NCBI RefSeq assembly: GCF_030028105.1 | Contig: NC_092371.1 | Span: 233,800,031-233,864,030, forward strand | Length of the DNA stretch: 64,000 bases | Source: Mobula birostris | Taxonomy: Eukaryota | Direction of reading: 5' to 3' | Shown: positions 24,427 through 61,599 of the stretch, in pieces | How the letters are laid out: each line of letters starts with the position of its first letter | Position numbering within the stretch: position 1 is the stretch's first letter | Notes under the pieces: generated by a model | What the model was told of the DNA's origin: nothing | Seen by the model: the letters and a program-made list of their open reading frames with translations, nothing else | Database searches by the model: none | Translations under genes and position numbers: made by a program

Positions 24427-24567
24427 CTCTCAATATTTCTTCTCAGGTCAGAAATCTGAACATTTCCCCGGACCATAAGTGCACAGGCAAGGTATAGGTT
24501 ACGTTTTGGATCAGCATGCATTAACTGGTGATCCTTACTGAAAGCATCAGTGAACATCTGATCCAAC
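24427..24567 (-). CDS. TUBE1: TUBE1 exon 10
   Basis: LDQMFTDAFSKDHQLMHADPKRNLYLACALMVRGNVQISDLRRNIE; 141 nt; gtttga donor. Confidence 0.96.
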
Positions 24568-26687: not shown

Positions 26688-26828
26688 CTTCTTGTAGGGA
26701 TGTTTAAATCAGCCAGGGTGTACAAAGGAGTTAGACTAGAAACAAGGTAATGCAGCCGTGGAAACGGAACCAGATTCATGGTAATCTCATTAAGATCCAT
26801 ATTGAGGGACCCTTCAAATCTGGAAGAA
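26688..26828 (-). CDS. TUBE1: TUBE1 exon 9
   Basis: SSRFEGSLNMDLNEITMNLVPFPRLHYLVSSLTPLYTLADLNIPTR; 141 nt. Confidence 0.97.
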
Positions 26829-28380: not shown

Positions 28381-29850
28381 TACAAGACCATAAGACATGG
28401 GAGCAGAATTAGGCTACTTGGCCCATCAAGTCTGCTCTGCCGTTCAATCACAACTGATTTATTATTCCGCTCAACCCCGTTCTCCTGCCTTCTTTTGGTA
28501 ACCTTTGACTCCCTGACCAAAAGAACTTATCAATTCCAGTTCATATACTCAACACATAACATTACTATAGTACTGTGTGAAGGTCTCATGCACTCTGGTT
28601 CCCCCCCTCCCCCTTATAGTTACACAAAACCTTTCCCACCAACTGCAATAAGCATATATAATAGCTCATCTCTCTGCGGCAGGCAAACACTCAAAAGTCG
28701 TACAATAGTCTCTGCTTTATTACTTCGTCCATTATTGCACATTGGTACATTATTGTGTATATTATTCTGTACTTCATTATTATTAGTTAAGTCTTCACAG
28801 AGTGTGTTTTTAAATGTTGCTGCTGTAACAAAAGAAACTCGCAATTATTATTAAATTTTCTTGGTCTCCACTGTCATCAAAGGTAATGAATTCCACAGAT
28901 CCACCACCCTCTGGCGAGAGAAATTCCTCCTCATCTCCATTCTAAAAGGACATTCTTATATTCTGAGGCTGTGCCCTCTGGTCCTAGACTCCTCACCATA
29001 GGAAACATCCTCTCCACTCTAAGGCTTTCATAATTTGATGTTTCAATGAGAGATCCCCCTCTCGTTCTTATAAACTCCAGCAGGTACAGCTAGAGAGTTA
29101 CACTTCATCAACTTCACAAGAGGCACACTTCATTAACCCTTTCATTCCTGGAATCATTCTCATTAACCTCCTCTGCACCCTCCCCAAAGCCAGCACAACT
29201 TTTATGGAACCGAAAGCTGCTCACAATACTCCAATTGTTGTCAAATCAGCACCTTGTAACACTTCAGCATCACATCGTCGCTGTTACATTGCAGCACACT
29301 CGAAATGAACGCTAACATTGCATTTGTCTTCCTGATCGCAGATTCATTCTGCAAGTTAGCCCTCAGGGAATCGTGAACAAAGAGTGCCAAGTCCCTTAGC
29401 ACCTCTGATTTTTGAATTTTCTCCCCATTTAGAAAACAGTCTAAGCCTTTATTCCTTCTACCAGGTGACTTATCTACCCTCAGACCTTTCAGCTTCCCAG
29501 GCTTCTCCTCCCTTGAAATGACTACATTCATTTCCGTCCCCTGACACTCTCAAATTTCTGGCATTATACTAGTGTCTTCCACAGTGAAGACTGATGAAAA
29601 ATACTTGCGTTTGTCTGCTATTTCTTTGTTCCCCCATTACTACCTCTCCTGCGTCATAATCTAGATTCTGATTTCCACTCTCACCTCCCATTTGCTCTTT
29701 ACACAGTATATCTGAAAAATCTTCTCTCTTTATTGTATTTTTTCATTGTCCTTTTTTTTTTAAAGCTTCCCTACCCTTTACTTTCACACTGATTTTTGCT
29801 GTATTATATGCCCCCTCTTCTGCTTTATGCTGTCTTTGACTTCAGAATTA
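28380..29850 (-). mobile_element. Degraded CR1 LINE with an inserted LINE tail (~28550-28855)
   Basis: ORF 29241..29531 has CR1 motifs (VDKSPG, EVLRDL, NAMLAFIS); ccataagac tail at ~28388. Confidence 0.7.
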
Positions 29851-30873
29851 GGTTTAATACCATCGGCATATTGTGAAATTTATTATCTTTGCGGCAGCAG
29901 TGCAATGCAACACATAATTGCCCCCAGAAACTCCAGCCATTGCTGTTCCACTGCTGTACCAGCAGTATAAAGAGGGGCATGAGTGCTGCGAGATATCCTG
30001 AAGACGATAACCATCTCCTTTGACTTGTTGATATTTAGGAAGTAGTTATTTGGCTGGCACCAGACCTCGAACTTGTCTGTAGGCCACAGGTTACCTTCCA
30101 CGTTCTCCTCAGTAGGATAGAAATTGCCTTATTGCATGTTATTGGTGTCAAAGAATAACATCACCCTAAAGTTATTTATAAAAATCCCATAAACATCATT
30201 ATCTTTAATTTAGAGAAACTCAACAATGCTGTTCTGTGAACCTCGATGTCAGCTTCAGCAACATTTCACTTGATTGGTCTGTTGCAAGATCTTTGCAAGG
30301 TATGCAATGCAGTTTAATTTTTAAAAATTCCCATATTTACATGCAACATATTGATAGTCCATAACACTCAAAGGCCATTGGCAAGCCAGTGGGGTAGCAT
30401 TATTCAGCTGCACAATAGCCTTCAGGGAAGAAGCTGTTTTTCAATCTTACTGTCTTGGCCAAGATGTTTCTGTATCTCCTACCAAATGGCAGGAGGTCTG
30501 GTAGGACAGTGTCTGGGATGGGATGGGTCTTTAATGGTGTTACAAGTGCACTGTAAGGCATTGAGAGTTGTAAGTTGTCTCCAGGTCCAGTAGTTGAGTT
30601 CCAGTGATGTGCTGAGCCATTCTAATCACCCGGTGGAGTGCTTTGTGATCTGTCTTGCTGCAGCTAGAGTACCACACTGTTATACCATATGTCGGGATGC
30701 TCTCTATCACACATCAATAAAAATTGGTCAGCAATTTTTGGGACAGATTAGCTCTTCTTAAGCAGCTCAAGTAGTATTGTCACTGTTGAATTAACCCCCT
30801 CTCTAGATATAGATGCAATGTACATCCACTGCTTCACCCTTGTCTACAGGAATGTATATAATGTATCACTCAC

Positions 30874-31040
30874 CTGGTCAAATTCAGAAGCAAGTTAGCA
30901 ACAATATTGTTCATTGCATCAAATGGCTTCTCCTGCTTTTTGGCCTCACTCTGACTGGAGATCAGAGTACTTTTCATTTTCACTGATACCATTTTGCCAC
31001 TGGCCATCTGATGGATTTTGTTGACTATGTCCACCAAGGA
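30874..31040 (-). CDS. TUBE1: TUBE1 exon 8
   Basis: SLVDIVNKIHQMASGK...KKQEKPFDAMNNIVANLLLNLT; 167 nt; gtgag donor. Confidence 0.95.
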
Positions 31041-31243
31041 CTAGATTTAGAAACGGAAAGGTTAGTAAATCTGCCTTTCAAAATGCAGCGTCCTCCTCAA
31101 AAATTAACCACATGAATGAATATCGGGAAACAAGATGGTTACGACAGCCAAGAAATCGAACTGTTTTGTAGCCCAATGTTGTGTCTAAAGGTCGAATAGG
31201 GATTTGTAATTGTACTATGTCCAAGTCTACATCCTGTACCTAC

Positions 31244-31431
31244 CTGATTTTCAATAGGCAAAACGCAATCTGCATGTTCAGTCAGCTCCTTCATGGCGAG
31301 AACACTATTATAAGGAGAGGTAATAACATCATCTTCAGCAGAAGGGTAGACGGAAGTAACAAATCTGTAAACCTCTGGGAATTCATCCTCCAGGAGGCTC
31401 AGGACAAAGGTACCCAATCCAGAACCAGTTC
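31244..31431 (-). CDS. TUBE1: TUBE1 exon 7
   Basis: GTGSGLGTFVLSLLEDEFPEVYRFVTSVYPSAEDDVITSPYNSVLAMKELTEHADCVLPIENQ; 188 nt. Confidence 0.97.
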
Positions 31432-31454
31432 CTAAAAAAAAAAATAATGAAGTT

Positions 31455-31806
31455 TTGATTATGAGTGGTATAGATAGGGTAAATGCAAGCAAGGTTTTTC
31501 CACTGAGGTTGGATGGGACTACAACCAGACGTCATGGGTTGAGGGTGGAAGGTGCAAAGTTTAAAAGGAACATGAGGGGAAGCTTCTTCACTCAGAGGGT
31601 TGAGGGAGTGGAACAAGCTGCCAGCACAGGGGCTGCATGTGAGCTTGATTTCAACATTCAAGAGAAGTTTGGATAGGTACGTGGATGGTAGGGGTATGGA
31701 GGCTATGGTCCCGGTGCAGGTTGATGGGACTAGGCAGGTTAAATGGTTCAGCATGGACTAGATGGGCCGAAGTGCCTGTTTCTGCGCTGTGTTTTTCAAT
31801 GACTCT
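31455..31806 (+). mobile_element. CR1 LINE 3' fragment abutting the TUBE1 exon 7 acceptor
   Basis: ORF 31455..31676 IMSGIDRVNASKVFP...TRRHGLRV...FFTQRV. Confidence 0.8.
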
Positions 31807-32270
31807 AAACATAAAGCAATTCCTGTTCAAACTTCTATTTCTCAATTTAGATTACAAGTCACATTTATATTCCTGTTGCTCAAAACAAATGATCGAAGTT
31901 ACAGCTGACAGAAAATGAAAAAGCTACAGATGCTGCAAATCTTGTGTCAGAAGTTTGTTTTCTTTTGCAAGCTCAGTTTAGAAGTACAGGTACATCTGCA
32001 CTTGGGCTGTTTGGGTAACAGAAATTAGCCCTTGGAGAATCCACCAATCACTGCTCAAAAAATTTGATATACTGAATTTATGTGGGAAAAAAAACAATAT
32101 TTATTTTTCTCAACTCACACTTTTTGATACACGTATAGATCCTGTAGCTTCATGTTATAGATATGGAATGTTTTCCAAGAGGGCAACCCACTACCCCCTC
32201 CAGTCCACCTGTAACCCAGAGGCCTCTGTAAAGTTTCTTTCTCCTAAGCTACAAGCTATGTTTGAATGGG

Positions 32271-32381
32271 TTCCTGACGAAGGCTCTCGGCCCGAAACGT
32301 CGACTGTACCTCTTCCTAGAGATGCTGCCTATCCTGCTGCGTTCACCAGCAATTTTTATGTGTGTTGTTTGAATGGGTTCC
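32271..32381 (+). mobile_element. Short Penelope-type insertion with intact hammerhead ribozyme core
   Basis: CTGACGA(32274)-aggctctcggccc-GAAA(32294)-cgTC; 16-bp direct repeat tgtttgaatgggttcc at 32259-32274 and 32366-32381. Confidence 0.7.
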
Positions 32382-32683
32382 ACAGTGTTTCTTTGTTTGT
32401 GGTTGTCTATAGGAGGATGAATCTAAGAGTTGTACACAGCATATACACTTCGATAATAAATACTGTGAATTCCCTTCAGATTCCATGAGCTGCTGGGCAC
32501 AGTAGAAGCTTAAACTAGAAAAATGTTTCAAAGAAAAATGTTTCACTTTCCGCTGATACTGCCTGGCCTGCTGAGTGTTTATAGCATCTTCTGCTTTTTT
32601 CAGATTTCCAGCATCTGCAGTTTTTGATTTTCAAAAATAAAAGGCTATTTGAAGGTAGCACATTGTAAAAAAGCAAGACTCAC

Positions 32684-32805
32684 CTCCACCCATTGAGTGG
32701 ATTAAAAAGAAACATTGCAAAGAATCACAGTGTTCAGCTGTTTTTCGGAGTATATCTACAATTTGGTCCCGGTACTGATTACCGTACTGTTTGTACCCCA
32801 CTGCC
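32684..32805 (-). CDS. TUBE1: TUBE1 exon 6
   Basis: AVGYKQYGNQYRDQIVDILRKTAEHCDSLQCFFLIHSMGG; 122 nt; first half of the tubulin signature GGGTGSG. Confidence 0.96.
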
Positions 32806-33893
32806 CTGTAGAAGAAAAAAAAGATTTTTTTTTTCAGAAAATACAACAATCAGCCAGATTTGTGAACATTGAGTTATGGAATATTATTTTTGTAATTATG
32901 TTCATCATTAATATGCTCAGACACATCCAAGAAAAAACAATTACCAGTAAATCTGTCTAATAACAAATCCTTCTTTATTTACCAGCCAGCTTTCTTGCCA
33001 TGATCATCATCACTTCTAACAGCTCAGTAATTTGTTTTTTTTTATCCTGTATAAATGGAAGGACGTCCCTTTAGAAGAGAGATGAGGAGGATTTTCTTTA
33101 GCCAGAGTGGTGAATCTGTGAAATTTATTGCCACAGATGGCTGTGGAGGTCAAGTCTTTTGGGTATATTTAAAGCGGAGGTTAATAACTTCTTGATTTGT
33201 TGGGCTTGCAGGGAGATGGGATTGAGAGAGATAATAAATCAACCAAGATGGAATGACGGAGCAGACTCGATCGGCCGCATGGCCTAATTCTGCTTCTATG
33301 TCTTACTGTCTTAAGACAGATATTACATGAATAGAACTAAAATGCAAAGGGAAAATAATAAAAATTTGCAATGCACAAAGTAAATTTATTATCAAAGTAC
33401 ATACATGTCACCATATTCAACTGACATTCATTTTCTTGTGGGTAATCATAGTAAATACAACAGAATCAATGAAAGACAAAAACCAATGCACCAAAATAAA
33501 CAATCTGCTAGTACAAAAGGAAAGAGAAAACAAAAAATATTGATAATAAGTAAGCAATAAATATTGAGAACATGAGATGAAGAGTCCTTGAAAATGAGTC
33601 CATAGGTTGTGGGAAGTTTAGTGATATTGCAAGCTACCATACTGTGGAGTTGAAATGGAGGGGATGGATCTCAAATTAGTAAAAGTGATGCAGGAACTAC
33701 AAATCAATAATTTAAGCTCACCAGTATGTTCTTTACTTCAGTCTCTAGTGTGTCAAACAGCCCATTTCTCTGTGGAAATGCAACTCAATGAGTAGGACTT
33801 ATAAAGTCCGGTTAGATGTTAGACCAGCAATGTTATGGACTGGAGGAATGAACTTCGAATGGTGCAACAAGCATTGGCCACATGTTTTCTTAC

Positions 33894-34009
33894 CAATTGT
33901 TACCTGAACCAGATACATCTGATATCAGCTGTTTATTGTCAAAAACATCTCTCAATGGACCCTGAAGTAATTCATTAAGGACACCTTCTTCCATGTCGAT
34001 GAGTACTGC
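33894..34009 (-). CDS. TUBE1: TUBE1 exon 5
   Basis: AVLIDMEEGVLNELLQGPLRDVFDNKQLISDVSGSGNN(W); 116 nt. Confidence 0.96.
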
Positions 34010-34757
34010 CTAAAAAGGAAAGAATATTTTCAGTAAGTCTAGTTACACTTAAATCAATCAGATATAACTGAAACAGATAAACAAATTAGAAGCAGTACTG
34101 GGCCATTCAGATCCTCAAGCCTGCTCCCTACCTTTCAAGTATCTATCCCTGTCCAAGATTCTGTCCTATTGACTTTTGAAAGGAGTTACCTCATCCGTCC
34201 TAATTGGTGATCTCCTACTTAAAATCTCAAGATCCAGAGATAACCCCCACAAGAGAAAACAAGCTCCACATCCACTTTAAGATACCATAGGATCTTACTA
34301 GTTTAATCGAGTCTCTTCTCCTAAACACTTGTGGATATGATCCAGAAGTCCGATCTTTCACCACAAGCTAACAGACCCATTTCATGTATTAATTTAAATT
34401 AATATTTTCTGAACTGCTTCCCATTATTAACATCACCCTTTTAAACTGGATCTGATACTGTTCCCGGTACTCAAGATGTTGTCTTAATTGAGCCCTATAT
34501 AACACAAGAACAAGCTGAATAGTTTAAATTAAATGACACTACACTTTGGCAAAGAGATAAGGTAAAGATTAAGATCTAAACTTTAATATTTTAACAATAC
34601 CATGTAGCATTATTTACATCATTGCTGTCATTAAGAATTTCAGCATAAATTTATCTTGTAGTAAGAAATGTTAATTGTCTATTAGAAAATGATTACATTG
34701 CTGCTAATTTAAAGTCACCACTACAACTGTACTTTAAAATTAATGTAAAAATGTTAC

Positions 34758-34818
34758 CCGAGCTTTGAGAGTTCTTATTAGACCTTTCTTTAGATTTAGA
34801 CCACCTCCATCAGTATAT
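34758..34818 (-). CDS. TUBE1: TUBE1 exon 4
   Basis: YTDGGGLNLKKGLIRTLKAR; tacag and gtaac sites; 61 nt; phase-consistent with both neighbours. Confidence 0.92.
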
Positions 34819-35036
34819 CTGTAAAATAATTGGTTCATAAAATGGGACTAATCTTTTTAAATAACAAAGTAACATAGATGTAGACATATTTCTTTATGCT
34901 ATCTGAAAATTAATTTCCTGTTACGTGTTATTTAATGTATATTAAAATTATTTAAAGTTTATTCTCAATCAACTAGGTCAACAAAATGTTTCATATTTTT
35001 AATATTAAAAACTGTTTGCAAAATTATATTGCCTAC

Positions 35037-35089
35037 CTTGTGTCCACATTTCTAAAGAAATTACTGAGAGCTTCATCATAGATGCCTTT
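35037..35089 (-). CDS. TUBE1: TUBE1 exon 3
   Basis: KGIYDEALSNFFRNVDT(R); tttag and gtagg sites; 53 nt. Confidence 0.95.
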
Positions 35090-35946
35090 CTAAATTGAAA
35101 ACAGAATAATAAAATATTTTGCAATGGGGATAATAATTAAATCCAACTCATCCATTACAAAATTTAAACAGCATCTTCCTGTAACTAACTGGAATAGCAA
35201 ACAAACATCAATCTTTCACTAAAATTGAGGCTGTGACAGCAGGAAGAATCTGAACAATTATTCTGACAAAGATTCTTAAAAAGGAGGTAATAAAGATTAC
35301 AATCATATATTGCAAAAAGGCAAAACCAGAGCATGATTCTAACGGTATTCACTGAAGGATTAATATCATAGAATTGTGAACGCGGATCAATGCAAACCAT
35401 CTGTACCAAACATTGAAATATACATTATAATCTTGAAAGTGTCCTGCTTTGCAAATATGATTACATATAATTAAAAGCCTTGTACATCAAAATCATACAT
35501 CAAGTCTACATGCTGCATCAAAAACAATTATTTTTCTAATTTGTATAACTGTATAAATACATGTACATATATTGATACATAGTACAGGCAATATACATCT
35601 TTTTCCATGTGACTTGGGGAAAGTAGCCCACTTTGGAAGACTGATTCGTGGACCAGCTCATGCCAAAGTAAATACCACAGGGACTCTGATTCCGAAGGTA
35701 ATCACCCAGATATTATCATTTCAAAATTTCATTATCCTCCGCCTACACATTTTGTTTCTTCCTTGTTTCTACCCACAATCTCACTGAAGCCATGGAAGTA
35801 AATATTTGCTATACAATTAGCTGTCTTTGTTGGGCACTGTTAGTATTTGTATTTAAACACAATTTTACCCAAAAAAAACCTCTGCTATCTCACCGGATTG
35901 ATCTGCTAACCTTCCCCTCCCCACCACTTACACTTTGCTACCCTAC

Positions 35947-36020
35947 CTTGTTGATGCTTGCATGCTCCCGGAGAACCAAATTCCAAAATCGGCAGCCGAT
36001 CTGATTGCCACACTGGCCGA
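35947..36020 (-). CDS. TUBE1: TUBE1 exon 2
   Basis: VGQCGNQIGCRFWNLVLREHASINK (tubulin GQCGNQIG motif); ttcag and gtagg sites; 74 nt. Confidence 0.96.
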
Positions 36021-36089
36021 CTGAAAACAAAAATGATACTGTGAGGGTCTGGATTTTATTAGTAAGTTGATGTATTCAGCAACATTAGG

Positions 36090-41135: not shown

Positions 41136-42221
41136 GATGGCAGTTATATACAGGACTTCAAACAGCAGCTGGGATGTAGACTACAGATTACAATGGACAA
41201 CAGAAAAAGCATGTCAAAAGGGCAATGTTACAGTAGTCATGGGAGATTTCAACATGCAGGTAGATTGGGATAAATCAGCGTGGTAATTGACCTCAAAAGA
41301 GTGAGTTTGTTGAAGGCCTATGAGATGGCTCTTTAAAGTCGTTTCTCATTGAGCCTATTAGAGGGTCAGCTATACTGGATTGAGTGTTATGTTATGAACT
41401 GGAAATGATTAGGGAGCTTAAGGTAAAAGAACCCATAGGACACAGTGATCACAATATGACTGAGTTCAACTAGAAATCTGATAGTCTGACATAGCAGTAT
41501 TTCAATGGAGTAAAGGAAATTACAGTGACATGAGAGAGGAGTTGGCCAAAGTAAATTGGAAGGAGATGCTGGCAGGGATGATAGCAGAGCAGCAATAGTG
41601 AGAGTTTCTGGGGAAAATGAGGAAGGTGCAAAATAGATATATTCCAAAAGCAAATAAATACTCAAATGGCAAAATAGTAAAACTGTGGCTGACAAGAAAA
41701 GTCAAAGCTAATGTAAAAGCAAAAGAGATAATAATAAGGGACAAGGAGATGGCAGATGAACTAAATGAGTATTTTGCATCAGTCTTCATTGTGGAAGACA
41801 CTAGCAGTGTGCCAGATGTTGAAGGGTGTGAGAGAAGAGAAGTGAGTGCAGTTACAACAGGAAATAGGGAAAAGGTGCTCAAAAAGCTGAAAGTTGCAGG
41901 GGTACATAAGTCACTCGGACCAGATGAACTGCACCCTAGGGTTCTGAAAGAGGTAGCGGTAGATATTGTGGAGGCATTAGTAATGATCTTTCAAAAATCA
42001 TTGGACTCTAACACGGTGCCAGAGGACTGGAAAATTGCAAATGTCACTCCACTCTTCAAGAAAGGAGGAAGGCAGCAGAAAGGAAATTATAGACCAGTTA
42101 GCCTGACCTCAATGGTTGGGAAGATGTTGGAGTCAATTATTAAGAATAAGGTTCTGGAGTACTTGGTGACGCATGGCAAGGGAAAATCTTGCCTGACGAA
42201 CCTGCTGGAATTCTTCAGATT

Positions 42222-43490
42222 CTTCTTCTTCTTTTTCTTCTCCTCCTCCATCTTGTTTTACGGTGGTTGGCACCCAGCTTAATGGTGCATTACCTCCACC
42301 TTCTGCTCCGGAGTGTGCAATAGACTTACATTCTACACACACACACACACCCAACCTGCACTTTATCCTCTCATCTTTGGCCATCCTAGTACCCTATTCC
42401 TGCTTATCCATCATATCCTATAAAAAAAACCCTGTATCCCTTAAGAAAGCTAAAACTACCCTGACCTGTGCTCTCTCACCCGTTTAAGAGACTACTAGAC
42501 AGGTATATGGAGGAATTTAAGGTGGGGGGGGTTATATGGGAGGCAGGGTTTAAGGGTCAGCACAACATTGTGGGCTGAAGGGCCTGTACTGTGCTCTGTT
42601 CTATATGTCCAGCAACCCTTTTAATGTGAATTCCTGTGCCCCCAATTCCCTTAGATTCTCATCATCTCTCTCGGCATCCCATACGTTCTGCAACTCAGAA
42701 CTACATGTTCTACTGACTCCTCTTCCTGACATTCCTCACACTATCCTGTCTGGTGTTTCCCTATCATTTTCAATGTTTTGTTTAATGCACAGTGTCCCAG
42801 CCTTAACCTAGTCCACACAGTTTCCTCTCTTCTGTATCTACTACCTACCCTAGTACCTGCAACACCTTTTTGTATTTGATATAAATGCCTCCCTTTCTCC
42901 TCCCTGTCCCATCTTTCTTGCCATATTTGGTTGATTTTTTTCCCCAAATTACACACTTCACCTCTGCTTTACTGATACTAATGTGCATTTCTATATTTTC
43001 TTTCTTTAACGCCCTCTTTGCCAACTCATCCACCCTCTCATTTCCCTTCACCCCCACGTGTGCTGGAACCTATAGAAATTTTACCTGATCTCCCTGATTT
43101 GCAATTCTTGTGACTGACTGAAGGACTTCATAAAGTACATCTTGCCGACTGTTTGAGTGAAAAGACCTTAAACTTGCTAGAACTGAGGATGAATCAGAGC
43201 ATATCAACACTTTGACTTGTCTAGCTTTCTCCACCCATCGTAAAGCAACCAACACTGCCAGTGTCTCCACTATATACAACCCAAACTTATTAGATGTTCT
43301 TTTGTTGATTCCAATTTCTTTTGCTGGTATAGCTACCCCAAACCTTGTCACTCCTGTTTCAGGTTCCTTAGCACCATCCGTATAAATCTGAGTATAATCA
43401 CTATACTTTTTCATCACATGACAGTTCAATGCACTTACTAAACCAGTTTTATATTTTCCTTTCCTTTTTACCTCTAACAAATGCCAGTCT
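42222..43490 (-). mobile_element. I-group (Nimb-like) LINE 3' fragment with RNase H and CCHC knuckle
   Basis: ORF 43070..43480 IYTDGAK...ETLAVLVAL.W...ICSDSSSVL, then HVGVKGNERVDELAK, TRLRLGH and CEECQEEESVEHV..SC; GAA-rich tail; carries a CR1 tail at ~42482-42605. Confidence 0.8.
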
Positions 43491-43610: not shown

Positions 43611-44420
43611 ATAGTCATACTTTATTGATCCCGGGGGAAATTGGTTTTCATTACAGTTGCACCATAAATAATAAATGGTAATAGGACCATCAATAGTTAA
43701 ATAGTAGTATGTAAATTATGCCAGGAAATAAGTCCAGGACCAGCCTACTGGCTCAGGGTGTCTGACCCTCCAAGGGAGGAGTTGTAAAGTTTGATGGACA
43801 CAGGCAGGAATGACTTCCTATGACACTCAGTGTTGCATCTCGGTGGAATGAGTCTCTGGCTGAATGTACTCCTGTGCCCACCCAGTATATTATGTAGTGG
43901 ATGGGAGACATTGTCCAAAATGGCATGCAACTTGGACAGCATCCTCTTTTCTCACACCACCGTCAGAGAGTCCCGTTCCATCCCCACAACATCACTGGCC
44001 TTACAAATGAGTTTGTTGATTCTGTTGGTGTCCACTACCCTCAGCCTGCTGCCCCAGCACACAACAGCAAACATGATAGCAGTGGCCACCACAGACTCGT
44101 AGAACATCCACAGCATCGTCCGGCAGATGTTAAAGGACCTCAGTCTCCTCAGGAAATAGAGATAGCTCTGACCCTTCTTGTAGACAGCCTCAGTGTTATT
44201 TGACCAGTCCAGTTTATTGTCAATTCGTATCCCCAGGTATTTGTAATCCTCCACCATGTCCACACTGATCCCCTGGATGGAAACAGGGGTCACCGGTACC
44301 TTAGCTCTCCTCAGGTCTACCACCAGCTCCTTAGTCTTTTTCACATTAAGCTGCAGATAATTCTGCTCACACCATGTGACAAAGTTTCCTACCATAGCCC
44401 TGTACTCAGCGTCAACTTCC
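43611..44420 (-). mobile_element. Rex1/Babar-type LINE, young 5'-truncated copy A
   Basis: ORFs 43952..44395 and 43745..43942 (LQLNVKKTKELVVD, YKYLG, FLRRLRSF); tatgac tail. Confidence 0.9.
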
Positions 44421-45114
44421 TAGGAAAGTTTGATTAGAACATTGGCTGATTGGTAGGAAGCAATGAGTGGGAATAAAAGGATACATATATAGTTATGACA
44501 GTGAGGGCATGGAGAGACAGCTAGGAGTGGTTGTAGTAAAGGCAGGTATATTATAGCTACTCAGAAAGCTTGCAGTGAAAGTCACAGCCTCTGACTCGGT
44601 GTGAAGGGGGTGGACAGTGTGATGAGGGTGCCACCACTGAGACACCATTAACATCTAGAATCAGTGTCTGCATCTTACGCACAAACAAGAGGAAAATCTG
44701 CAGATGATGGAAATCCAAAGCAACACACACTAACTGCTGGAGGAACTGTTGACATTTCGGACCAAGTTCTAGAGCACAAATCCTCAGTACCATAGCTGGA
44801 GTGTTGTCTGACCCTGTAAGATGTATCCTATCTGGTGAAAAAATTCAGCATGGCAAGCAATATTATTCTTTGTCCACAGAATGCTATGTGACTTGCTGAC
44901 TGTATTTAGCACATTTTATTTCAAAGTTAAAAGTACATTTGTTTACAAAGTACACTTATGTCACCATATGCTACCCAGAGATTCATTTTCTTGTGGGCAT
45001 TCAAGGTAAATCCAAGAAACAACATAATCAATGAAAGACTGCAACCAACATGGTGAACAGAAAACAAACTGTGTAAATGGAAAAAGAAAAAAAGAAATAA
45101 TAATAAATAAATAA

Positions 45115-46288
45115 GCAGATGTAGTGTATATGGATTTTAGCAAGGCATTTGATAAGGTACCCCATGCAAGGCTTATTGAGGAAGTAAGGAGGCATGGGAT
45201 CCAAGGAGACATTGCTTTGTGGATGCAGAACTGGCTTGCCCACAGAAGGCAAAGAGTGGTTGTAGATGGGTCATATTTTGCATGGAAGTTGGTAACCAGT
45301 AGTGTGCCTCAGGGATCTGTTCTGGGATCTTTACTTTTTGTGATTTTTATAAATGACCTGGATGAGGAAGTGGAGGGATGGGTTACTAAGTTTGCTGATG
45401 ACACAAAGGTTGGAGGTGTTGTGGATAGTGTGGAGGGCTGTCAGAAGTCACAGCGGGACATTGATAGGATGCAAAACTGGGCTGAGAAGTGGCAGATGGA
45501 GTTCAACCCAGATAAGTGTGAGGTGGTTCATTTTGGTAGGTCAAATATGATGGTAGAATATAGTATTAAAGGTAAGACTCTTGGCAGTGTAGAGGATCAG
45601 AGGGATCTTGGGGTCAGAGTCCATAGGACACTCAAAGCAGCTGCGCAGGGTGACTCAGTGGTTAAGGCGGCGTACAGTGTATTGGCCTTCATCAATCATG
45701 GAATTGAATTTAGGAGCCAAGAGGTAATATTGCAGCTATATAGGACCCTGGTCAGACCCCACTTGGAGTACTGTGCTCAGTTCTGGTCGCCTTACTACAG
45801 GAAGGATGTGGAAGCCATAGAAAAGGTGCAGAGGAGATTTACAAGGATGTTGCCTGGATTGGGGAGCATGCCTTATCAGAATAGGTTGAGTGAACTCAGC
45901 CTTTACTCCTTGGAGCGACGAAGGATGAGAGGTGACCTGATAGAGGTGTATATGATGATGAGAGGCATTGATCATGTGGATAGTCAGAGGCTTTTCCCAG
46001 GGCTGAAATGGTTACAAGAGGACACAGGTTTAAGGTGCTGGGGAGTAGGTACAGAGGAGATGTCAGGGGTAAGTTTTTTTTTTACTCAGAGAGTGGTGAG
46101 TGCGTGGAAAGGGCTGCCGGCAACGGTGGTGGAGGCGGATACGATAGGGTCTTTTAAGATAGGTATATGGAATTTAGTAAAATAGAGGGCTATAGGTAAG
46201 CCTGGTAATTTCTAAGGTAGGGACATGTTCACCACATCTCTGTGGGCCGAAGGGCCTGTATTGTGCTGTAGGGTTTCTATGTTTCTAA
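45115..46288 (+). mobile_element. CR1 LINE, young 5'-truncated copy with long open RT frame
   Basis: ORF 45124..46185 (353 aa) YMDFSKAFDKVPH...SVPQGSVLG...KFADDTK...LVRPHLEYC; (tttctatg) tail; inserted in a LINE tail with taagca on both sides. Confidence 0.93.
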
Positions 46289-47545: not shown

Positions 47546-49008
47546 GTAAATCAGATTTCTGGCCGAACGTCGCCGAACGATCGTAAGATTGCTTCGGAGT
47601 TGTAATCACAGTAATTTTGGTAATGGCTTTGCTAAGGGTTTTAACAACTTGTTTATTTGCGCTTTGTGTCGATAGTCATCTTTGTTATTTGCGCGGGCCC
47701 CACCGCATTGCACTGGTGAATTGGAAACAATGATGAGTCATTTCCTCTATCTGTTGCTGAGATGATTTTTCAGAGCTCTTAGTGCTTAAATCGATTTTCA
47801 ATCTCTTTTTTTTAATGCCTCGTCTTCGGGTTTTTAACTCAAGTAAAGGAGTCAAATGCTATCGTTTTGATGACAGCTGTACCGTCACTCCGCTTTTCCT
47901 AGCACAATCATATTCTTGTTTTCCTCCAGTGATTTTGAGTAGTTTGAAGTAAATTTCTTTCCAACATCATCACAAATTTATCTTCCGGGCTATCGAGTCT
48001 ATATGTTTCAGCGGGAGAAGTCCGCCGAACCAGACCATTTCGAGCCTCGCTATGATCCACGTCACTTAAAATCACCTATTCTCTGACTGAATACACGCTT
48101 TATTCGTCAATCCTGTTAAAGAGGGAATGTTGTTGCATTATATAGACCTACTAATAAACAATTTGTTAGTTAAATCTATTACAGTTCATTGGTTCAGTAT
48201 ATGGACTTTTAAATAAGTTTACAGTTGTGACAGAAAATACCCCACAGGTAATCAGTAAATTGATGTGGTGTTTTGGGTACTGGTTCCAGTTGAACAAACG
48301 ATTTAGACTCATCATGGAATTAAACAGCTCACCCCACCAAATCTCTGCTGATACAAGTTCAAGTTTATAGTTGTCCAACCATACACATGTATACGGTGAA
48401 ACAAAACATCATTGGGGGGGAGGGGGGAGACAAGGTACATAGAGTGGCACACGGCACATATAGTTACAATCCAACACAAAAAGTCACAGAGTAAAAGAAG
48501 CCCTGAAAGAAAAAGAAGAGCATGAAGCCTTGAGTGCCACCACATGAAGATTGACAGGTTGACATAAAGTGTCAGGTTTATATAAGGCAATATAATGACT
48601 AATTAGATTAGATTAGATTCAACTTTATTGTCATTTTGCCAAGTACAGATACAAAGCCAATGAAATGCACTTAGCATCTGACCAGAAATGCAAAGAATAG
48701 TGTTATTTACAAAATAACTGTGAATAAAAAAGTGCTACAGCACACAAATATAAAAGTACTGAGACAGTACAATACGGATGCAATATTGCTTAGTGCTGTG
48801 ATGAGGGGTTCAGCAGTGTCACAGCCTCAGGGAAGCTGAACCTGACATATGGTATTTTGTTTTAATAATGTCCAGCAGGGTCTTGCGGTCATAAGAAAAA
48901 CATGTAAAGCAAAGACTTACACCATTTTTTGGACCTAGAAACATCATTGCAACTCAGTGCGCCACCATTTTCTTTAATTAATCTCGTTTATTTACTCCTT
49001 GGACTGTG

Positions 49009-50025
49009 GACTGGCAGACCACAGTACATGTGCTTGCAACACTGTGTGTCTGACAGAGAGATCAGCAGCACTGGGGCTCCACAGGGGACTGTCTTGTCTC
49101 CCTTTCTCTTCACCATTTACACCTCGGACTTCAACTACTGCACAGAGCCTTGTCATCTTCAGAAGTTTTCTGATGACTCTGCCATAGTTGGATGCATCAG
49201 CAAGGGAGATGAGGCTGAGCACAGGGCTACGGTAGGAAACCTTGTCACATGGTGTGAGCAGAATTATCTGCAGCTTAATGTGAAAAAGACTAAGGAGCTG
49301 GTGGTAGACCTGAAGAGAGCTAAGGTACAGGTGACCCCTGTTTCCATCCAGGGGTTCAGTGTGGACATGGTGGAGGATTACAAATACCTGGGGATACAAA
49401 TTGACAATAAACTGGACTGGTCAAAGAACACTGAGGCTGTCTACAAGAAGGGTCAGAGCCATCTCTATTTCCTGAGGAGACTGAGGTCCTTTAACATCTG
49501 CTGGATGATGCTGAGGATGTTCTACGAGTCTGTGGTGGCCAGTGCTATCATGTTTGCTGTTGTGTGCTGGGGCAGCAGGCTGAGGGTAGCAGCCACCAAC
49601 AGAATCAACAAACTCATTCGTAAGGCCAGTGATGTTGTAGGGATGGAACTGGACTCTCTGACGGTGGTGTGAGAAAAGAGGATGCTGTCCAAGTTGCATG
49701 CCATTTTGGACAATGTCTCCCATCCACTACATAATATACTGGGTGGGCACAGGAGTACATTCAGCCAGAGACTCATTCCACCGAGATGCAACACAGAGTG
49801 TCATAGGAAGTCATTCCTGCCTGTAGCCATCAAACTTTACAACTCCTCTCTTGGAGGGTCAGACACCCTGAGCCAATAGGCTGGTCCTGGACTTATTTCC
49901 TGGCATAATTTACATATTACTATTTAACTATTTATGGTTTTATTACTATTTATTATTTATGGTGCAACTGTAACAAAAACCAATTTCCCCTGGGATCAAT
50001 AAAATATGACTATGACTATGACTAT
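49009..50025 (+). mobile_element. Rex1/Babar-type LINE, young 5'-truncated copy B
   Basis: ORF 48929..49672 GAPQGTVLSPFLFTIYT...KFSDDSAIVG plus 49682..49879; (tatgac)3 tail. Confidence 0.92.
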
Positions 50026-52119
50026 TTCCTCCAAACTCTGTAATCTTCCCTCCTCCTCTCCTTTTCTTTCCCCTTAATCCAGTAATTATTCCTCCTTTGG
50101 TTAATTTATCTAGTTTTCCTTTTAATGATTACCATGGAATCTTGTTTCTTTGTTGTTTCATGCAGTGAATTTGTAAGCAGAGTAGCTTGTGTGTATTTTT
50201 CTTAGATCTTGTTTACTTTGTCTTACTATGATAATAATGTTAAGTTTAGTCTTCTGACACTGAATGTACTAATAGTGGAATTTAATGTAATTGTGAACAC
50301 TAATTGTTCTTTATCTTTTCCACTTTCAGTCCAAAAACTGGTAGACCTAACCATGTTTTAAATCTGATCATGTGTAACAAGGCCAAATTAATTAATAATC
50401 TCTTAGCAAAGGATGCTCTGGGGAAGAGTGATCAAAATGTAATAGGATTTCAAAATAAAATGTGAGAATCTACAGTGCACCCATTCAGATTACAATTTGT
50501 TTTGAAAAGTTACCCATTATAAAATGGTTTCCTGAGTAATAAATCTATAGCATCATCATAGAAACAGAACTAGTACCAGGAATGTGCTGTTTAGTGGATT
50601 ACCTTAGTGTGGAGATGAGTGATATCTTGCAATAATCTTACACTATTATATCTGAAATTAAAATACAAATTATTGTTGCAAACATCTTTCAGTAGACATC
50701 ATCATTCCATATGTTGTTCTTACCTCACAAATCATCTCTGGAGAAATTTACTTGTACTCATTCTAGTCTGTTAATGTTTCATTTTTAAAAAATAGCCATG
50801 AGTTAAAATTCCCTCTGTAACCTCAAACTCTTGATCTCTGTGCTTTTTATTATCCTTGTAACCCCAGAACTTCCCTGGGTTCCTCCAAGTCCAGTCCAGC
50901 GTAATGTTTAGCGATTGTACAGTCCTGTGCGAAAGTCTTGGACACTGTAGCTATATAGGGCTGTGGGACAGGTGGCAGAGAAGGAGTGCCGGGGGCGGGG
51001 GGGTGGTGCGGGTGTTGGCAGTGCATGGTACAGGCACACTGAGACAACAAGCAAGGTCATTTGATTCCAAACAATTGGTTTACTGATCATTACATGGTCT
51101 CTATGATGCTTCCTACTCCCTCCTCCTTTTCCCTTTTCCCAACCTTGATTCCCCTCTCCTTGTCCCCTTCCCATTCTCAATCCATAATATGGACCCATAT
51201 CAGAATCAGGTTTATCATCACTCATATATTTCATGAAATTTGATTTTTTTTCAGTACAATTCAATACATAAAGTTACTGTAGTACTTGCACAAAGTCTTT
51301 GGAGGCACACTAGCCATATATACTGTACTTTTTGCACAGTATCATATATGTAATAAAGACCCAGATTATTGCTGTAAACAGCTTTCAGTATAGTTAATTA
51401 CTGCCCGGTTGAGCTATGCTTGCTTAATATTCTATGATGAAAAGAAACAAAAAGGAGCAAAAGCTAATTGCAAACTTAACTGAGATATGATTTCCATGAG
51501 ACTTTCTTTGCCATGGATCACTGCGACACCACTCTTAAAGGGGAAGGAGGCATTGATAATGATATTTACCAATTGGCAAAGTGATTATAAGCAAATTAAA
51601 GTTTTATTGGGATTATAGAGTGAAAGCATGTAAAAGTAAATTAAAATGAACTGTGAAATTGTTATATTTTCTAATAAGTTTAAATGGAAAGTATTTAATT
51701 GACTGAGACTGAGGGATACATCAATGTTTAGTATATCTCCTTCGAGACTCTTAGCCATACAGAATAGAAGCAGGCTTTTGGTAAAATATATATTGTATTT
51801 GTCAGTTCGATTGTCAAACACTTATCTACACTAATCCCTTTCCTTTATTCTCCTCATCTTCCCATTTCTTCCCCTTTGCCTTCCGATTTCCGAATGGACA
51901 TTGAACATTGAACCTATTAGCACTACCTCACTACTTATTTTAAGTACTGATGAAGGGTCTTGGCCCAAAATGTCCATAGATGCCGCCTGGCCTGCCGAGC
52001 TCTCCCAGCATTTTGTGTGTGTTGCTTTGATTTCCAGTATTGGCAGATTTCCTCTTACCTATTTTTTTAATTTCTATTTTTGCATCACTTACTTAATTTA
52101 AATATTTCATATATATGTT

Positions 52120-52318
52120 GTTGTTGGTGAGTGCTGTCGACTCATGGCGATCCTATGGATAGTGTAGACATCCGAAGGGTTTTAATGGCAAGATACTGAA
52201 GTAGATTGCCAGGCTTTCTTCTGCAAAGATGTTGCTGCTGCCCAGGTTGGGACCCGGCCAGATGGAACCATGTGCAGCCAAGTCCAGTGCTGATGTGACT
52301 ACACAACCGGCTGGCCCG
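52120..52318 (-). mobile_element. tRNA-derived SINE with RTE-type (ACA)n tail
   Basis: Minus strand starts gggccagccggttgtgtagt and ends atcgccatgagtcgacagcactcaccaacaacaaca. Confidence 0.55.
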
Positions 52319-52335
52319 TAAATATATTCATACAC

Positions 52336-52548
52336 TTACTGTAATTCACACATCAAAGTTGCTGGTGAATGCAGCAGGCCAGGCAGCATCTCTAGGAAGA
52401 GGTACAGTCGACGTTTCAGGCCGAGACCCTTCGTCAGGAACCTCTTCCTAGAGATGCTGCCTGGCCTGCTGCATTCACCAGCAACTTTGATGTGTGTTGT
52501 TTGAATTTCCAGCATCTGCAGAATTCCTCGTGTTTACTGTAATTCACA
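52336..52548 (-). mobile_element. Palindromic Penelope-type insertion with hammerhead core in the hairpin loop
   Basis: Perfect inverted arms ~52347-52403 and ~52440-52496; 15-bp TSD ttactgtaattcaca (52336-52350 and 52534-52548); minus-strand CTGACGA...GAAAcgTC at 52437-52410. Confidence 0.8.
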
Positions 52549-52923
52549 GTTTGTTTCCTCTCTATTATTATGTTTTGCATTGTACCGCTACCAAAAAGAC
52601 AACAAATATCTGACATATGCAGGGTGATATTAAACCAGATTCTGATTCTGACTCCCTTGAATCACTCTTTCATGTATGCAGTCAGACCATTTCCAAATTG
52701 CACATCATCAGGGTGAAGGAGAAAACTCATGGGCTCACGAGGAAAACATGGACTACTCTACCTGGACAGCAATGGATATTGTGATTGAACCCAGTTTGTT
52801 GGAACTATGAAGAAACATCACAACTAGCTGCACCATTGTAACCACGTCCACTTCTATAAATCCTTCCTCTGGTATTATTGTTCCTGCTTATAGAATTAAG
52901 CACCCACAGTCACTGAGGAAAAT

Positions 52924-53146
52924 ACACATAAAATGCTGGGGGAACTCAGCAGGTCAGGTAGCATCTACAGAAAAGAGTAAACAGTTGGCGTCTTGGGCCA
53001 AGACTCTTCTTCAGGACAGCTGGTTCTCAACTGGGTCCTCATGAAGGGTCTTGGCCCAAAATGTTGACTGCTTGCTATGTCCATAGATGCTGCCTGGCCT
53101 GCTGAGTTCCTCCAGCATTTTGTGCGTGTTGCTTTAGATTTCCAGG
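52924..53146. mobile_element. Older palindromic Penelope-type insertion with two decayed hammerhead motifs
   Basis: aaaatgctgggggaactcagcagg...cctgctgagttcctccagcatttt inverted arms; similar structures at ~11270-11560 and ~62040-62250. Confidence 0.7.
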
Positions 53147-53941
53147 TGGGTAGGTTTTTTCATGTTCATATATTTGTGATGTGTATTACCATGAATATCT
53201 GTAAAAGGATTTATTTAACATTTGATCTTTTACCTTTGTACCAAAGAACACATTCACAGCGATATAATATTTCCTGTCTTTATTAGGTAAGTTCCCAGTG
53301 AAAAGCATGGGTAATTCCATGAAATCTTTCAGGGATGAGATTGCATTAAGTCTCCTTTGAAGAGATCATTTCAAGTAGTGGTTTCAGATTGTACAACTGA
53401 TCGGTACCTGTGGGAGCCGTGCATCTGTTCCCTATCTGCATTGTACTCTGTGTTGTGTGTTCATTATGTTTATTATGGTAACTAGTCACAAGAGTGGAGG
53501 GTGTGCTAAAAGCGAAGGGAATAAGTTACAAACTCTTGCTTATTTTGTGGCAGTTTGTAGCTTGGGACCGGCGGATGACATATCTTTTGCTGACAGCTCA
53601 GTTATGCTTAGCTCACACCAGGGTACGCTTAAATTTCGTCGCTTCAAGTTTGTATATTTGCTAATTGCTCAAAAAGGATCAAATGAAGGATTCAAATTTG
53701 GAGCAATTATTGAAGCTGAGGGTGCATCACGCAAGTAAACAAGTCTGTGGGGCTTTGTCTTTCGTTTTGTTTTGCTGCTACAGTATCCACGTGGATAGAG
53801 CGGTTGTAGGATATGAGCAGCCCTCAAACAAAAGTCATAGCTTTGATTCTGTCAGAATAAAGTATCATTGGATAAATTCAGATTTCATAATGATATTGCA
53901 ATCAGAATCGGATTTATTATCAGGAAAGTGTCATGAGTTCT

Positions 53942-57198: not shown

Positions 57199-57997
57199 GT
57201 AAGATACATCTAATCTAAAGTTCAAAGTAAATCTATTATCAAGGTATGTATATGTCACCATATACTATATAGATTTTTCGTGCAGTTATTCACAGTATAA
57301 AAAAGACATACAACAGATTCAATGAAAATGACACAGGCAAAGACAGACAAACAATCAATGTGTAAAAGAAGACAAACTGTGCAAATATAAAATTAAATTA
57401 ATAGGTAAATAAATACTACTGAGAACATGACTTGCAGAGTTCTTGAAAGCGAATCCCTGGGTTATGGAACATTATTTAAAACTGAAATGATTAAAACTTA
57501 AATATCCAATCTATAATAGTGCTGTAACTAAAATAATCCTTCCAAAAGTTTCAGCTCCCATATTCTAGCTTTTGTTACCTGATTGTTTTCTGTGCTGTTC
57601 ATCACAAATACTCAAATGGAGAAAAGCAGTGGCCTGCTTCGTTCTGTTTTCCTCCATCTAAATCATCATCGTTGTGTGCCATGTCGTTTGACATAGGTGG
57701 TCATGCTCTCATGGCCGCGATTGTTCTTGGCAAATTTTTCTACAGAAGTGGTTTCCCCATTGCTTTCTTCTGGGCAGTGTCTTTACAAGACAAGTGATCC
57801 CAACCATGATCAATACTCTTCCGAGATTCTGTGCCTGATGTCAGTAGACTTGTGATGTGCACCAGCTGCTCATACGACCATCCACCACCTGCTTACATGC
57901 CTTCACGTGGCTCTGATTGGAGGGGCTAAGCAGGTGCTACACCTTGCCCAAGGGTGACCTGCGGGCAAGCAGAGGGAAGGAGTAATGTACACTTCCT

Positions 57998-58545
57998 TTG
58001 ATGGTTAGGCCACACTTGGAGTGCTGTGTCCAGTTCTGGTCACCTCACTATAGGAAGGATGTGGAAGCATTGGAAAAGGTACAGAGGAGATTTACCAGGA
58101 TGCTGCCTGGTTTAGAAAGTATGCATTATGATCAGAGATTAAGGGAGCTAGGGCTTTACTCTTTGGAGAGAAGGAGGATGAGAGGAGACATGATAGAGGT
58201 GTACAAGATAATAAGAGGAATAGATAGAGTGGATAGCCAGCGCCTCTTCCCCAGGGCACCACTGCTCAATACAAGAGGACATGGCTTTAAGGTAAGGGAT
58301 GGGAAGTTCAAGGGGGATATTAGAGGAAGGTTTTTTACTCAGAGAGTGGTTGGTGCGTGGAATGCACTGCCTGAGTCAGTGGTGGAGGCGGATACACTAG
58401 TGAAGTTTAAGAGACTACTAGACAGGTACATGGAGGAATCTAAGGTGGGGGCTTATATGGGAGGCAGTGTTTGAGGGTCGGCACAACATTGTGGGCCGAA
58501 GGACCTGTACTGTGCTGTACTATTCTATGTTCTATGTTCTATGAG
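57998..58545 (+). mobile_element. CR1 LINE 3' fragment, young
   Basis: ORF 57998..58474 is open to the natural ORF2 end; (ttctatg)3 tail. Confidence 0.92.
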
Positions 58546-59304: not shown

Positions 59305-60525
59305 AGATTCAAAGTAAATATATTATCAAAGTACATATATGTCACCACTTACAGCCCTGAGAATCATTTTCTTGCGGGCATACTCAATAAATCCAATAAC
59401 CGTGTTAGGATCAATGAAAGCGCACTAACAGGGCACACAACCAATGTGCAAAAGACAAGAAACTCTGCAAATGCAAAATAAAATAGAAAAACAAAATAAA
59501 TAATTAAAATAATAATATGTTTGAGCTGTGAAAAAACAAAAATACAATAACAATAATAATAACAAAAGTAATAAATATCAAGTACATGAAATGAAGAGTT
59601 TTTGAAAATGAGTCCATAGGTTGTGGGAATAGTTCAGCGATGAGGTAGTGAAGTTGAGTGAAGTTATTCCCTCTACTTCAAGAGCTTGATAGTTGAGTGG
59701 TAATAATTGTTTCTGAACCTGATGGTGTGAGTCCTGAGGCTCCTGTATCTTCTTCCTGATGTCAACAGTGAGAGGAGAGTATAATCCGGGTAATGGGGGT
59801 CCCTGATGATGGATGCTGCTTTCCTACAACAACACTCCATGTAAATGTGCTCAGTGGTAGCTTTCACTGTGATGGACTTCTTGTAGGATTTTTCAGTTAA
59901 GGGCATTGATGTTTCCATAGTAGGTTGTGATGCAGCCAGTTGGTACACTGTCCACCACACATCTATGGAAGTTTGTCGAAGTTTTAGATGTCGTGCTGAA
60001 CCTTCACAAATTCCTAAAGAAATAAAGGTGCTGCTGTGTTTTCTTCATAACTTCACTTACATGCTGAGCTCAGACAGATTTTCTGAAATAATAACACCGA
60101 GGAACTTAAAGCTTTGATGAGGGCTTGTACATGGACCTCTGGGTTTTCATCACTTGAAGTCAATAATCAGCTTCTTGGTCTTGCTGACAGTGAGTAGGAG
60201 ATTGCTGTTATGGCCCACTCAGCCAGGTTTTCAATCTCCCTCCTACATGCTGATTCATCACCACTTTTGATTCAGCCTACGAGAGTGGTGTCATCAATGA
60301 ACTTGGATGTGGTATTGGAGTTGTGCTTTGGCACACAATCATAAGTGTAAAGTGAGTAGAGCAGGGGGCTAAAGACACAGTCTTGTGGTACATCTGTGCT
60401 GATGGAGGTTGTGGAGGAGATGTTGTTGCCAATCCCAGCTGAGTGGGGTCTGTAAATGAGGAAATTGAGGATCCAATTGCAGAAAGTGGTATTGAGGTCT
60501 AGGTCTTGATTATTCATTAGTTTTG
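59305..60525 (-). mobile_element. Rex1/Babar-type LINE, degenerate RT and 3' UTR
   Basis: ORF 60272..60589 CNWILNFL...VPQDCVFSPLLYSLYT...KFIDDTTLVG and ORF 59673..59960. Its 3' tail recurs at ~10860, 33378, 44920 and 57220. Confidence 0.82.
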
Positions 60526-61599
60526 AGGAGACAAGAATTCTATTATAATGATATATGTACTGAGATTTTTTAAACAGCTTGGAGTACAAAAGGAGAGATA
60601 TATACTTAAGTAATTGTAGTTAGAATTTCTAGTTCAGGTTTATTGTCATCTGACTGTACATATACACAACCAAATGAAATAACATTCCTCTGGACTATGG
60701 TGCACTCACAAAGCATATATCACACTCAGCACATAAAACAAGTTCAATAAGTTAATAAAATATAAATATAAATTATGTATTATTATCATGAAATAAGTTA
60801 ATAAAATATAAATCAAAATGCATGTAGTGCGCAGCACAGGTAAACGGTAAGCATATTCTATATTTAATTTGAATTACTATGATAATTTGATGGTGGGAAG
60901 GCACGAGTAAGAATGTTTAAAAAAAATATTGAGTAGAATGGTCCCACGGATGGAGAATTTCATTTATGTGAATAGACTGGAGAAGATAGGATAGCCCTAC
61001 TTAAAATGGAGAAGGTTAGAAGGATATTATCAATGGTCCAGACAGGAGAAGGATGAGAAACTATTTTTATTGGCTGTGGTGTTAAAAAGCAAAATCCGCA
61101 TTTCTGGGGAAAAGAACAGAAAGTGATGAGGAAACAATAATTTCATGCAATGATCAAAAAAAGGCCACTGACTCAGAATAGAAGAACAATCCTTTAGATC
61201 AGAAATGAGGTGGAATTTCTTTAGCCAGAAGGTGGTAAATCTGTGAAATTCATTGCCACAGACAGCTGTGGAGGCCAGGTCAATGGATAGATTTAAAGCG
61301 AGATTGAAAGATTTTTGATTAGTAAGGGTGTCAAAGGTTATAGGGCGAAGGTAGGAGAATGGGCTTGAGAGGGGAAAATAAATCAGTCGTTCTGCCCCTC
61401 TGTCTTATGGTCTTATGATTATACTGATTTGGAATTTGTTGTGTGAAGGGATGGTGAAGTGAGATTCATTCATTCCTTTCTAAAGGAAATAAAATAGATA
61501 CTTCAGGAATCAATGGGAAACTTTGACACTTTGAGGAAAGAGTTACAAGGTGAGACTAATCAGATTGCTCTGATAGAGAGTTGATACAGGTTGTCACCA

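Follow-up and report, generated by a model that had tools for sequence, protein, structure and literature searches.

Two head-to-head pLTR pieces of a Penelope-like element carrying a probably inactive minimal hammerhead ribozyme

Metazoan Penelope-like elements (PLEs) bear in their pLTRs a minimal hammerhead ribozyme (min-HHR) that combines CUGANGA and GAAA boxes with an extra nucleotide separating positions 9 and 10.1, a palindromic 15.2-16.2 segment lacking a loop 3 and a native stem I of 5 bp. It occurs mostly in solo copies, with some close opposite-strand pairs, and is reported in the fish Xena, Poseidon and Neptune elements (PMC4209133). No cleavage was seen for single minimal hammerheads (PMC4209133). 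The RT, CX4CxxC motif and GIY-YIG domain form the signature of the Neptune and Nematis elements, the latter sharing the linker motif (PMC8557442). In the Neptune clade of EN+ PLEs, an inverted 5'-truncated copy typically lies beside a forward copy, with a tail of 30-40 bp on one side only and a target duplication of variable length (PMC8557442, PMC3846280), and head-to-head is the most frequent arrangement (PMC3846280). The PAc protein of a green anole Poseidon element cuts and extends both target strands, and the tail is bounded by the two internal positions at which its RT starts (PMC11167929). Non-LTR retrozymes are non-coding units with a type I hammerhead, are related to PLE pLTRs and occur in cartilaginous fish; they are built of head-to-tail tandem units with a ribozyme in each (bioRxiv 10.64898/2026.07.22.740005).

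The segment 52336-52548 of the window (the whole 64-kb stretch of DNA analysed here) is a real, ordinary PLE fragment inserted as two head-to-head pieces. A 15-nt direct repeat (52336-52350 / 52534-52548, 100% identical) bounds an insert of 198 nt, and a contig of the related species organism C (run X9) links 52335 directly to 52534. This empty site with a single target copy establishes that the 198-nt insertion is real. The insert contains two inverted arms of 57 nt each (52347-52403 / 52440-52496), 100% complementary and spaced by 36 nt, with a fold z-score of -18.2 and none of 200 shuffles equally stable. Hence, both the perfect hairpin of about 57 bp and the 15-bp target-site duplication described in a first-pass annotation of this DNA stand. 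It overlooked that the left target copy shares its final 4 nt (52347-52350) with the arm; their match to the 3' end of the inverted pLTR piece would represent a priming microhomology. The parts of the locus are:

52336-52350, plus strand: left copy of the target-site duplication, 15 nt, matched by the empty site in run X9
52347-52439, minus strand: inverted 5'-truncated pLTR piece without tail, colinear with the copy at 32272 (86/93 nt identical)
52347-52403, minus strand: left hairpin arm, pLTR sequence natively downstream of the ribozyme
52405-52439, minus strand: minimal type I hammerhead, with C3 of the core at 52437, CUGACGA, the extra A and GAAA at 52417-52414
52440-52535, plus strand: forward 5'-truncated pLTR piece without the ribozyme, starting 6 nt downstream of the cleavage site
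52534-52548, plus strand: right copy of the target-site duplication

Colinearity of the 32272 copy with the inverted piece identifies the left arm as what natively follows the ribozyme, and the insert is therefore an inverted piece joined head to head with a forward one. The inverted piece begins 2 nt upstream of the hammerhead core and spans the core and 57 nt of native downstream sequence, whereas the forward piece duplicates those 57 nt and then runs into a tail of 37-39 nt (52497-52535); the hairpin arises from the copying of this one 57-nt stretch into both pieces. The locus thus displays the marks of EN+ PLE insertions, namely a target-site duplication with an empty site, an inverted 5'-truncated copy and a one-sided tail in the 30-40-bp range. 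Unlike the Neptune-clade examples of PMC8557442 and PMC3846280, both pieces are shorter than 100 nt and lack an ORF, the CX4CxxC and GIY-YIG ORF of that clade being seen here through the ray homologues of an older sibling, and the target duplication is 15 nt long as against 8-10 in the rotifer insertions. The target itself lies in another, older low-copy repeat (52120-52335), where contig depth is raised in all runs.

Between the arms, the minus strand reads UC-CUGACGA-A-GGGU-CUCG-GCCU-GAAA-CG-UC-GA-CUGU, and all elements of the hammerhead core named in the first-pass annotation are present, with the cleavage C at 52410. The nucleotides C3-A9, G12-A15.1, U16.1 and H17 are in place, as are the extra nucleotide between 9 and 10.1 (A at 52430) and the palindromic 15.2-16.2 segment without loop 3. 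Stem II pairs 52429-52426 with 52421-52418 over 4 bp, compared to 7-8 in the Schistosoma families (PMC4209133). Stem III is the loop-less palindrome ACGU (52414-52411), C17 is 52410 and cleavage would follow it. The 3' strand of stem I is GACUG (52409-52405) and its 5' strand is reduced to 2 nt, leaving 2 contiguous pairs instead of the expected 4-5, with 5 bp seen in the long copies. On sequence grounds, the core, the extra nucleotide and the loop-less palindromic stem III point to a minimal type I hammerhead of the dimer-dependent kind, as had been proposed. The closing pair of stem II, previously overlooked, is G10.1-U11.1, in contrast to the highly conserved G10.1-C11.1 of the min-HHRs (PMC4209133). 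Because C11.1 is found in 7 of the 8 ungapped copies in the window, the family has the usual pair and the copy at 52437 does not. This copy further differs from the described min-HHRs in retaining 2 bp of native stem I within a 57-bp hairpin that stems from the inversion (PMC4209133).

A family-blind minimal-hammerhead descriptor gave one match on both strands of the 64 kb, the copy at 52437, and none in 100 of 100 approximate dinucleotide shuffles, while a 33-nt core pattern matched twice in the window and not at all in 100 shuffles. Thus, the descriptor search suggested at first pass singles out this motif. The companion suggestion, Infernal with the Rfam hammerhead models, yielded no match at the gathering score in the window, and no hammerhead family was among the 6 and 12 Rfam matches up to E=10; the below-threshold matches to miRNA hairpins were rejected as generic hairpin scores. 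Non-detection is expected for a motif without a stem III loop, and it lowers membership in the Rfam models rather than likeness to hammerheads.

Around 20 pLTR pieces of one repeat family lie within the 64 kb; in four of them the sequence continues upstream as a pyrimidine-rich 3' UTR, which in one case leads on to a GIY-YIG remnant. The copies most useful for comparison are:

14505-15212, plus strand: dead 5'-truncated Neptune-type copy of an older subfamily, with the GIY-YIG remnant at 14505-14846 and the pyrimidine-rich 3' UTR
32272-32365, plus strand: colinear solo pLTR of the young subfamily with the same 5' boundary, used as the comparison copy
52921-53145, no strand assigned: older head-to-head pLTR pair with decayed cores in both pieces and arms 76-87% complementary
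11266-11557, no strand assigned: older head-to-head pLTR pair, core decayed

Pfam did not recognise the remnant (14502-14858), which was identified through its homologues. Those from rays carry an RT, the CX4CxxC motif and GIY-YIG; the CX2-5CxxC linker upstream of GIY-YIG is present in ray homologues P0001-P0003, and the remnant in the window is truncated below it. As the pLTR follows a GIY-YIG remnant whose ray homologues carry the Neptune/Nematis signature, the repeat is the pLTR of a PLE, probably of Neptune type, which upholds the Penelope-type origin proposed earlier. The position of the pLTR downstream of an RT/GIY-YIG ORF is seen via the older sibling at 14505-15212 only. The young subfamily would be Neptune-type too, its clade being read from that sibling because no full-length active young element was seen. 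The pLTR of the 14505 copy is 72-82% identical to the young pieces and includes a CpG-decayed hammerhead at 15082; this copy has no RT, an 11-residue deletion and changed residues in the YIG and inner CxxC motifs. The homologues of the endonuclease remnant and of a tubulin epsilon exon indicate a cartilaginous fish as the source. Over the element, contig depth sums to about five orders more than on the unique flanks, a depth that is not a copy number.

The 32272 copy, in an intron of the minus-strand tubulin epsilon gene and antisense to it, has an intact core with one stem II mismatch and is 86/93 nt identical to the inverted piece. It is flanked by a 16-nt direct repeat (32259-32274 / 32366-32381), which overlaps element-like sequence at both ends. 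Together with the 52437 copy it alone keeps the full core, older copies having decayed (G12 is lost in 6 of the 8 ungapped ones), consistent with the young subfamily previously suggested. The two older head-to-head pairs share the layout of a short left and a longer right piece. Organisms B and C likewise have contigs over the centre of the 52921-53145 pair, and the left piece of the 11266-11557 pair is broken by another insertion, with a possible 6-nt target duplication. Their junctions differ from that at 52440, one having a 17-nt spacer and the other a start inside stem II. Across the window, the 3' ends of pLTR copies (230-62162) cluster at two GT-rich sites about 37 nt apart, in keeping with the PLE 'tail'. 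Other related sequences include an inverted repeat at 159-1437 (22-nt exact run) that encloses old pLTR pieces at 230-358 (minus strand) and 1003-1208 (plus strand), and old copies at 5434-5644 and 44683-44790 whose internal deletions remove most of the ribozyme or the sequence after it. An element of about 1 kb in a TUBE1 intron (22680-23750) has long inverted repeats with exact runs of 107, 44 and 21 nt, which include pLTR-derived sequence at 22728 and 23697; it may be a fold-back/MITE-like unit or else a PLE inversion of larger size. Metagenome scans with two family patterns returned 0 stretches each.

The first-pass annotation had the inversion rebuild the ribozyme fold, with the arms supplying a long stem I. 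The comparison with other copies points the other way. Native stem I is CAGUC/GACUG, 5 bp, with CAGT upstream in 3/3 long copies; family contigs of three DNA runs continue likewise at 52439, where consensus agreement is low (0.37-0.38). Of the 5 pairs, 2 survived the inversion and 3 were removed, and the arm is native pLTR. When the 150-nt hairpin is folded in silico, a pairing probability of 0.012 is obtained for the two remaining stem I pairs and of 0.84-0.99 for CUGACGA with the strand of the cleavage site, and the proposed ribozyme fold lies 6.2 kcal/mol above the MFE. The ACGU stem III has no loop and hence cannot close in a monomer, so that an active form would have to be a double hammerhead whose stem I strands are exchanged. 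For this, the 57-bp intramolecular helix would have to open, and it would thus oppose the strand swap in a dimer; the double hammerhead (-242.9 kcal/mol) is predicted to be 14.9 kcal/mol less stable than two hairpins (-257.8). Nearest-neighbour energies take no account of Mg2+, protein assistance or tertiary contacts, and misfolding in silico is also seen for the colinear young copy (32272), such that folding alone is no proof of inactivity. Position 7 in the young subfamily is C, which makes the CUGACGA box complementary to the cleavage-site strand (52432-52436 with 52409-52413), and this alternative pairing could keep monomers inactive. On balance, the hairpin is an insertion by-product, more likely to block the ribozyme than to restore it. 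With its loop-less stem III, short stem I, G-U pair and a core predicted to be mispaired, the 52437 ribozyme is most likely an inactive passenger; it is without a partner in cis, and the copy is expected to decay like the older ones. Ribozyme function would reside in the source element, as slow, dimer- or protein-assisted cleavage of tandem transcripts.

We consider a single retrotransposition of a young Neptune-type PLE, leaving two pLTR pieces head to head with the ribozyme as a passenger, to be the likely origin of the locus. As to the mechanism, we lean, with less assurance, towards a two-strand cut, extension from two start sites and joining of the cDNAs. The RT-endonuclease of the element would make a 15-nt staggered cut and extend both DNA 3' ends. 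The top strand would be primed at the first internal start site via the 4-nt microhomology and acquire no tail, and the bottom strand would be primed at the second site, 37-39 nt further on, and acquire the tail, both short cDNAs then being joined at their ends. We propose that both are short because they were begun in the upstream pLTR near the 5' end of the RNA. The PAc element likewise has two internal RT start sites bounding the tail, an AT-rich target, cutting and extension of both strands and a hammerhead in the pLTR region (PMC11167929). It belongs to another clade, and its pLTR starts well upstream of the ribozyme rather than at the ribozyme 5' edge as in most copies here (PMC11167929).

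From one locus, two-primer insertion is indistinguishable from self-priming, in which the cDNA or RNA of the same element would fold back at the stem I inverted repeat; alternatively, the arms could have been homogenised or the loop flipped later. Self-priming has been proposed for PLE head-to-head junctions with palindromes (PMC3846280), and the 52439/52440 junction equals the stem-I-annealed joint minus 4 nt. Another contig of run X1 (record 2) can be aligned across that junction at the cost of 11 differences and 3 gap letters, and both arms share one non-majority base (52473/52370), which fits either one template or later conversion. However, the tail into which the forward piece runs for 37-39 nt is absent from the inverted piece, so that the former was not wholly copied from the latter; moreover, both piece ends sit at the two usual 3' ends of the family, and the two older pairs have other junctions. 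We therefore regard self-priming or later homogenisation as unlikely. Least probable of all is a fold-back chimera of the assembly giving a false perfect hairpin. High-copy repeats do break contigs, and in run X1 none of the contigs listed, the longest pieces, spans the whole hairpin, but the exact 15-nt duplication matches the empty site in organism C, the right junction recurs in contigs of organisms A (17 element letters) and B (26 element letters), the tail is asymmetric and analogous older pairs lie nearby.

Scarcely more credible is the original suggestion of a retrozyme-like, non-autonomous unit mobilised by the 14505 element, its ribozyme rebuilt in active form by the inversion. All core nucleotides are intact in what is the sole descriptor match in the window, a helix does close the core beyond a 4-nt bulge, and an origin of retrozymes from PLE pLTRs has been argued, with retrozymes present in one chondrichthyan that was sampled (bioRxiv 10.64898/2026.07.22.740005). 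Yet, the tandem units that define an active retrozyme in that preprint (at least two head-to-tail units with complete hammerheads) are absent: the locus is one head-to-head insertion with one core, and what it contains belongs to the pLTR found after the GIY-YIG ORF in long copies. Native pLTR makes up the arm, stem I has been shortened rather than rebuilt (P=0.012 for the proposed pairing), stem III is unable to close, and the older inverted pairs have decayed. The supposed mobiliser is itself dead and of another subfamily, with no RT, a damaged endonuclease and an older pLTR.

The head-to-head retrotransposition can be placed in time by comparison of species. Contigs of four runs were aligned to 51500-53400, and the pieces taken as orthologous (records 17, 19, 20, 23 and 24 of organism B; 25, 27, 28, 30 and 31 of organism C) show 30/1352 and 69/1153 differences, respectively; records 18, 21, 22, 26 and 29 were excluded as likely paralogous repeats. 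The insertion postdates the split from organism C. In organism B, a contig (52508-52651) has 26 element letters and the same flank, below the 31-letter bridging rule, and the insertion is probably common to this organism. Hence, of the recent insertion claimed at first, an age below the split from organism C holds, tempered by the probable sharing with organism B. The neutral probability of zero arm differences falls from 0.28 to 0.03 across this age bracket, and the perfect arms thus need no selection unless the insertion lies near the older age limit, where they would be unlikely without conversion (P=0.03). Apart from the free position 7 and CpG sites, the old and young subfamilies agree in the ribozyme block (one more marked column reflects a tie caused by a private change), whereas the downstream sequence differs widely. 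Over five pairwise comparisons with CpG sites set aside, 19/133 ribozyme columns differ as against 86/289 downstream, a difference that the computed P value overstates, the comparisons not being independent. The ribozyme block, including the CUGANGA and GAAA boxes, is therefore preferentially conserved at the level of the source elements, as the first reading would have it, while the full core persists among inserted copies only in the two young ones.

A further pattern concerns the 5' ends. In 8 of the 11 core-bearing copies, resemblance to the long copies ends within 2-6 nt upstream of C3:

C3 positions of the eight copies: 358, 11439, 32274, 51947, 52437, 53014, 53038, 62156

The two young copies (32272 and 52437) start at the same base. 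Under a lenient null, 8/16 ends in 7 of 100 positions has P = 4e-6, the boundaries being judged from short matches. The site at the 5' edge resembles an initiator and, equally, a splice acceptor. The idea that a common upstream exon had been spliced to the AG at the core 5' edge was rejected as a source of the pattern, the 8 short copies sharing no upstream sequence. PLE start sites have been located in the pLTR (PMC2377424) and a Penelope intron ends at helix I (PMC4209133). The clustering suggests that the ribozyme lies at the transcript 5' end and that solo pLTRs are run-off cDNAs; in the open-access literature, supplements apart, we did not find it described. The expectation that 5' ends would map to the cleavage site is not borne out in the window (0/11 core-bearing copies), the forward piece alone starting near it (+6). 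One could combine these points into a record of the PLE cycle, with an initiator-like start at the hammerhead 5' edge, run-off solo pLTRs and a second cDNA from hammerhead-cleaved RNA joined through stem I, but we hold this to be doubtful, more so than self-priming. One other contig (the X1 record mentioned above) crosses a similar junction, the two older pairs differ, and RNA-seq of the anole element did not show cleavage products as templates (PMC11167929). If true, this would amount to in vivo evidence for hammerhead cleavage products of PLEs acting as templates.

The coding exons of tubulin epsilon (TUBE1; 11 found by tblastn, 17086-36045, minus strand) place the insertion about 16 kb upstream of this gene, outside its coding introns. 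Among 126 of the stop-free frames of at least 48 aa from 46.3-64 kb, a set taken outside the evident retroelement ORFs and the element itself, no host-gene Pfam domain was found, the three weak matches being one RT and two below the cut-off. A host or non-coding transcript may nevertheless cover the locus. Several unique flank bins have no cover in run X17 (presumed RNA), which has no bearing on expression. Many LINE-type RT remnants, which we take to be CR1/L2-like, are scattered over the window (2259-2867, 18111-18839, 41602-42282, 43952-44419, 45115-46185, 48908-49672, 57986-58474 and 60275-60619).

Taken on its own, the locus is unimportant, pLTR fragments being very numerous: it adds one copy to an established type of PLE insertion and bears an established, here probably inactive, type of ribozyme. 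As a caution, perfect hairpins at PLE hammerheads arise from the well-described tendency of these elements to insert inverted copies and do not indicate selection. Nevertheless, the many short dated copies offer 5' ends and inversion junctions that could test the role of the hammerhead in PLE transposition.
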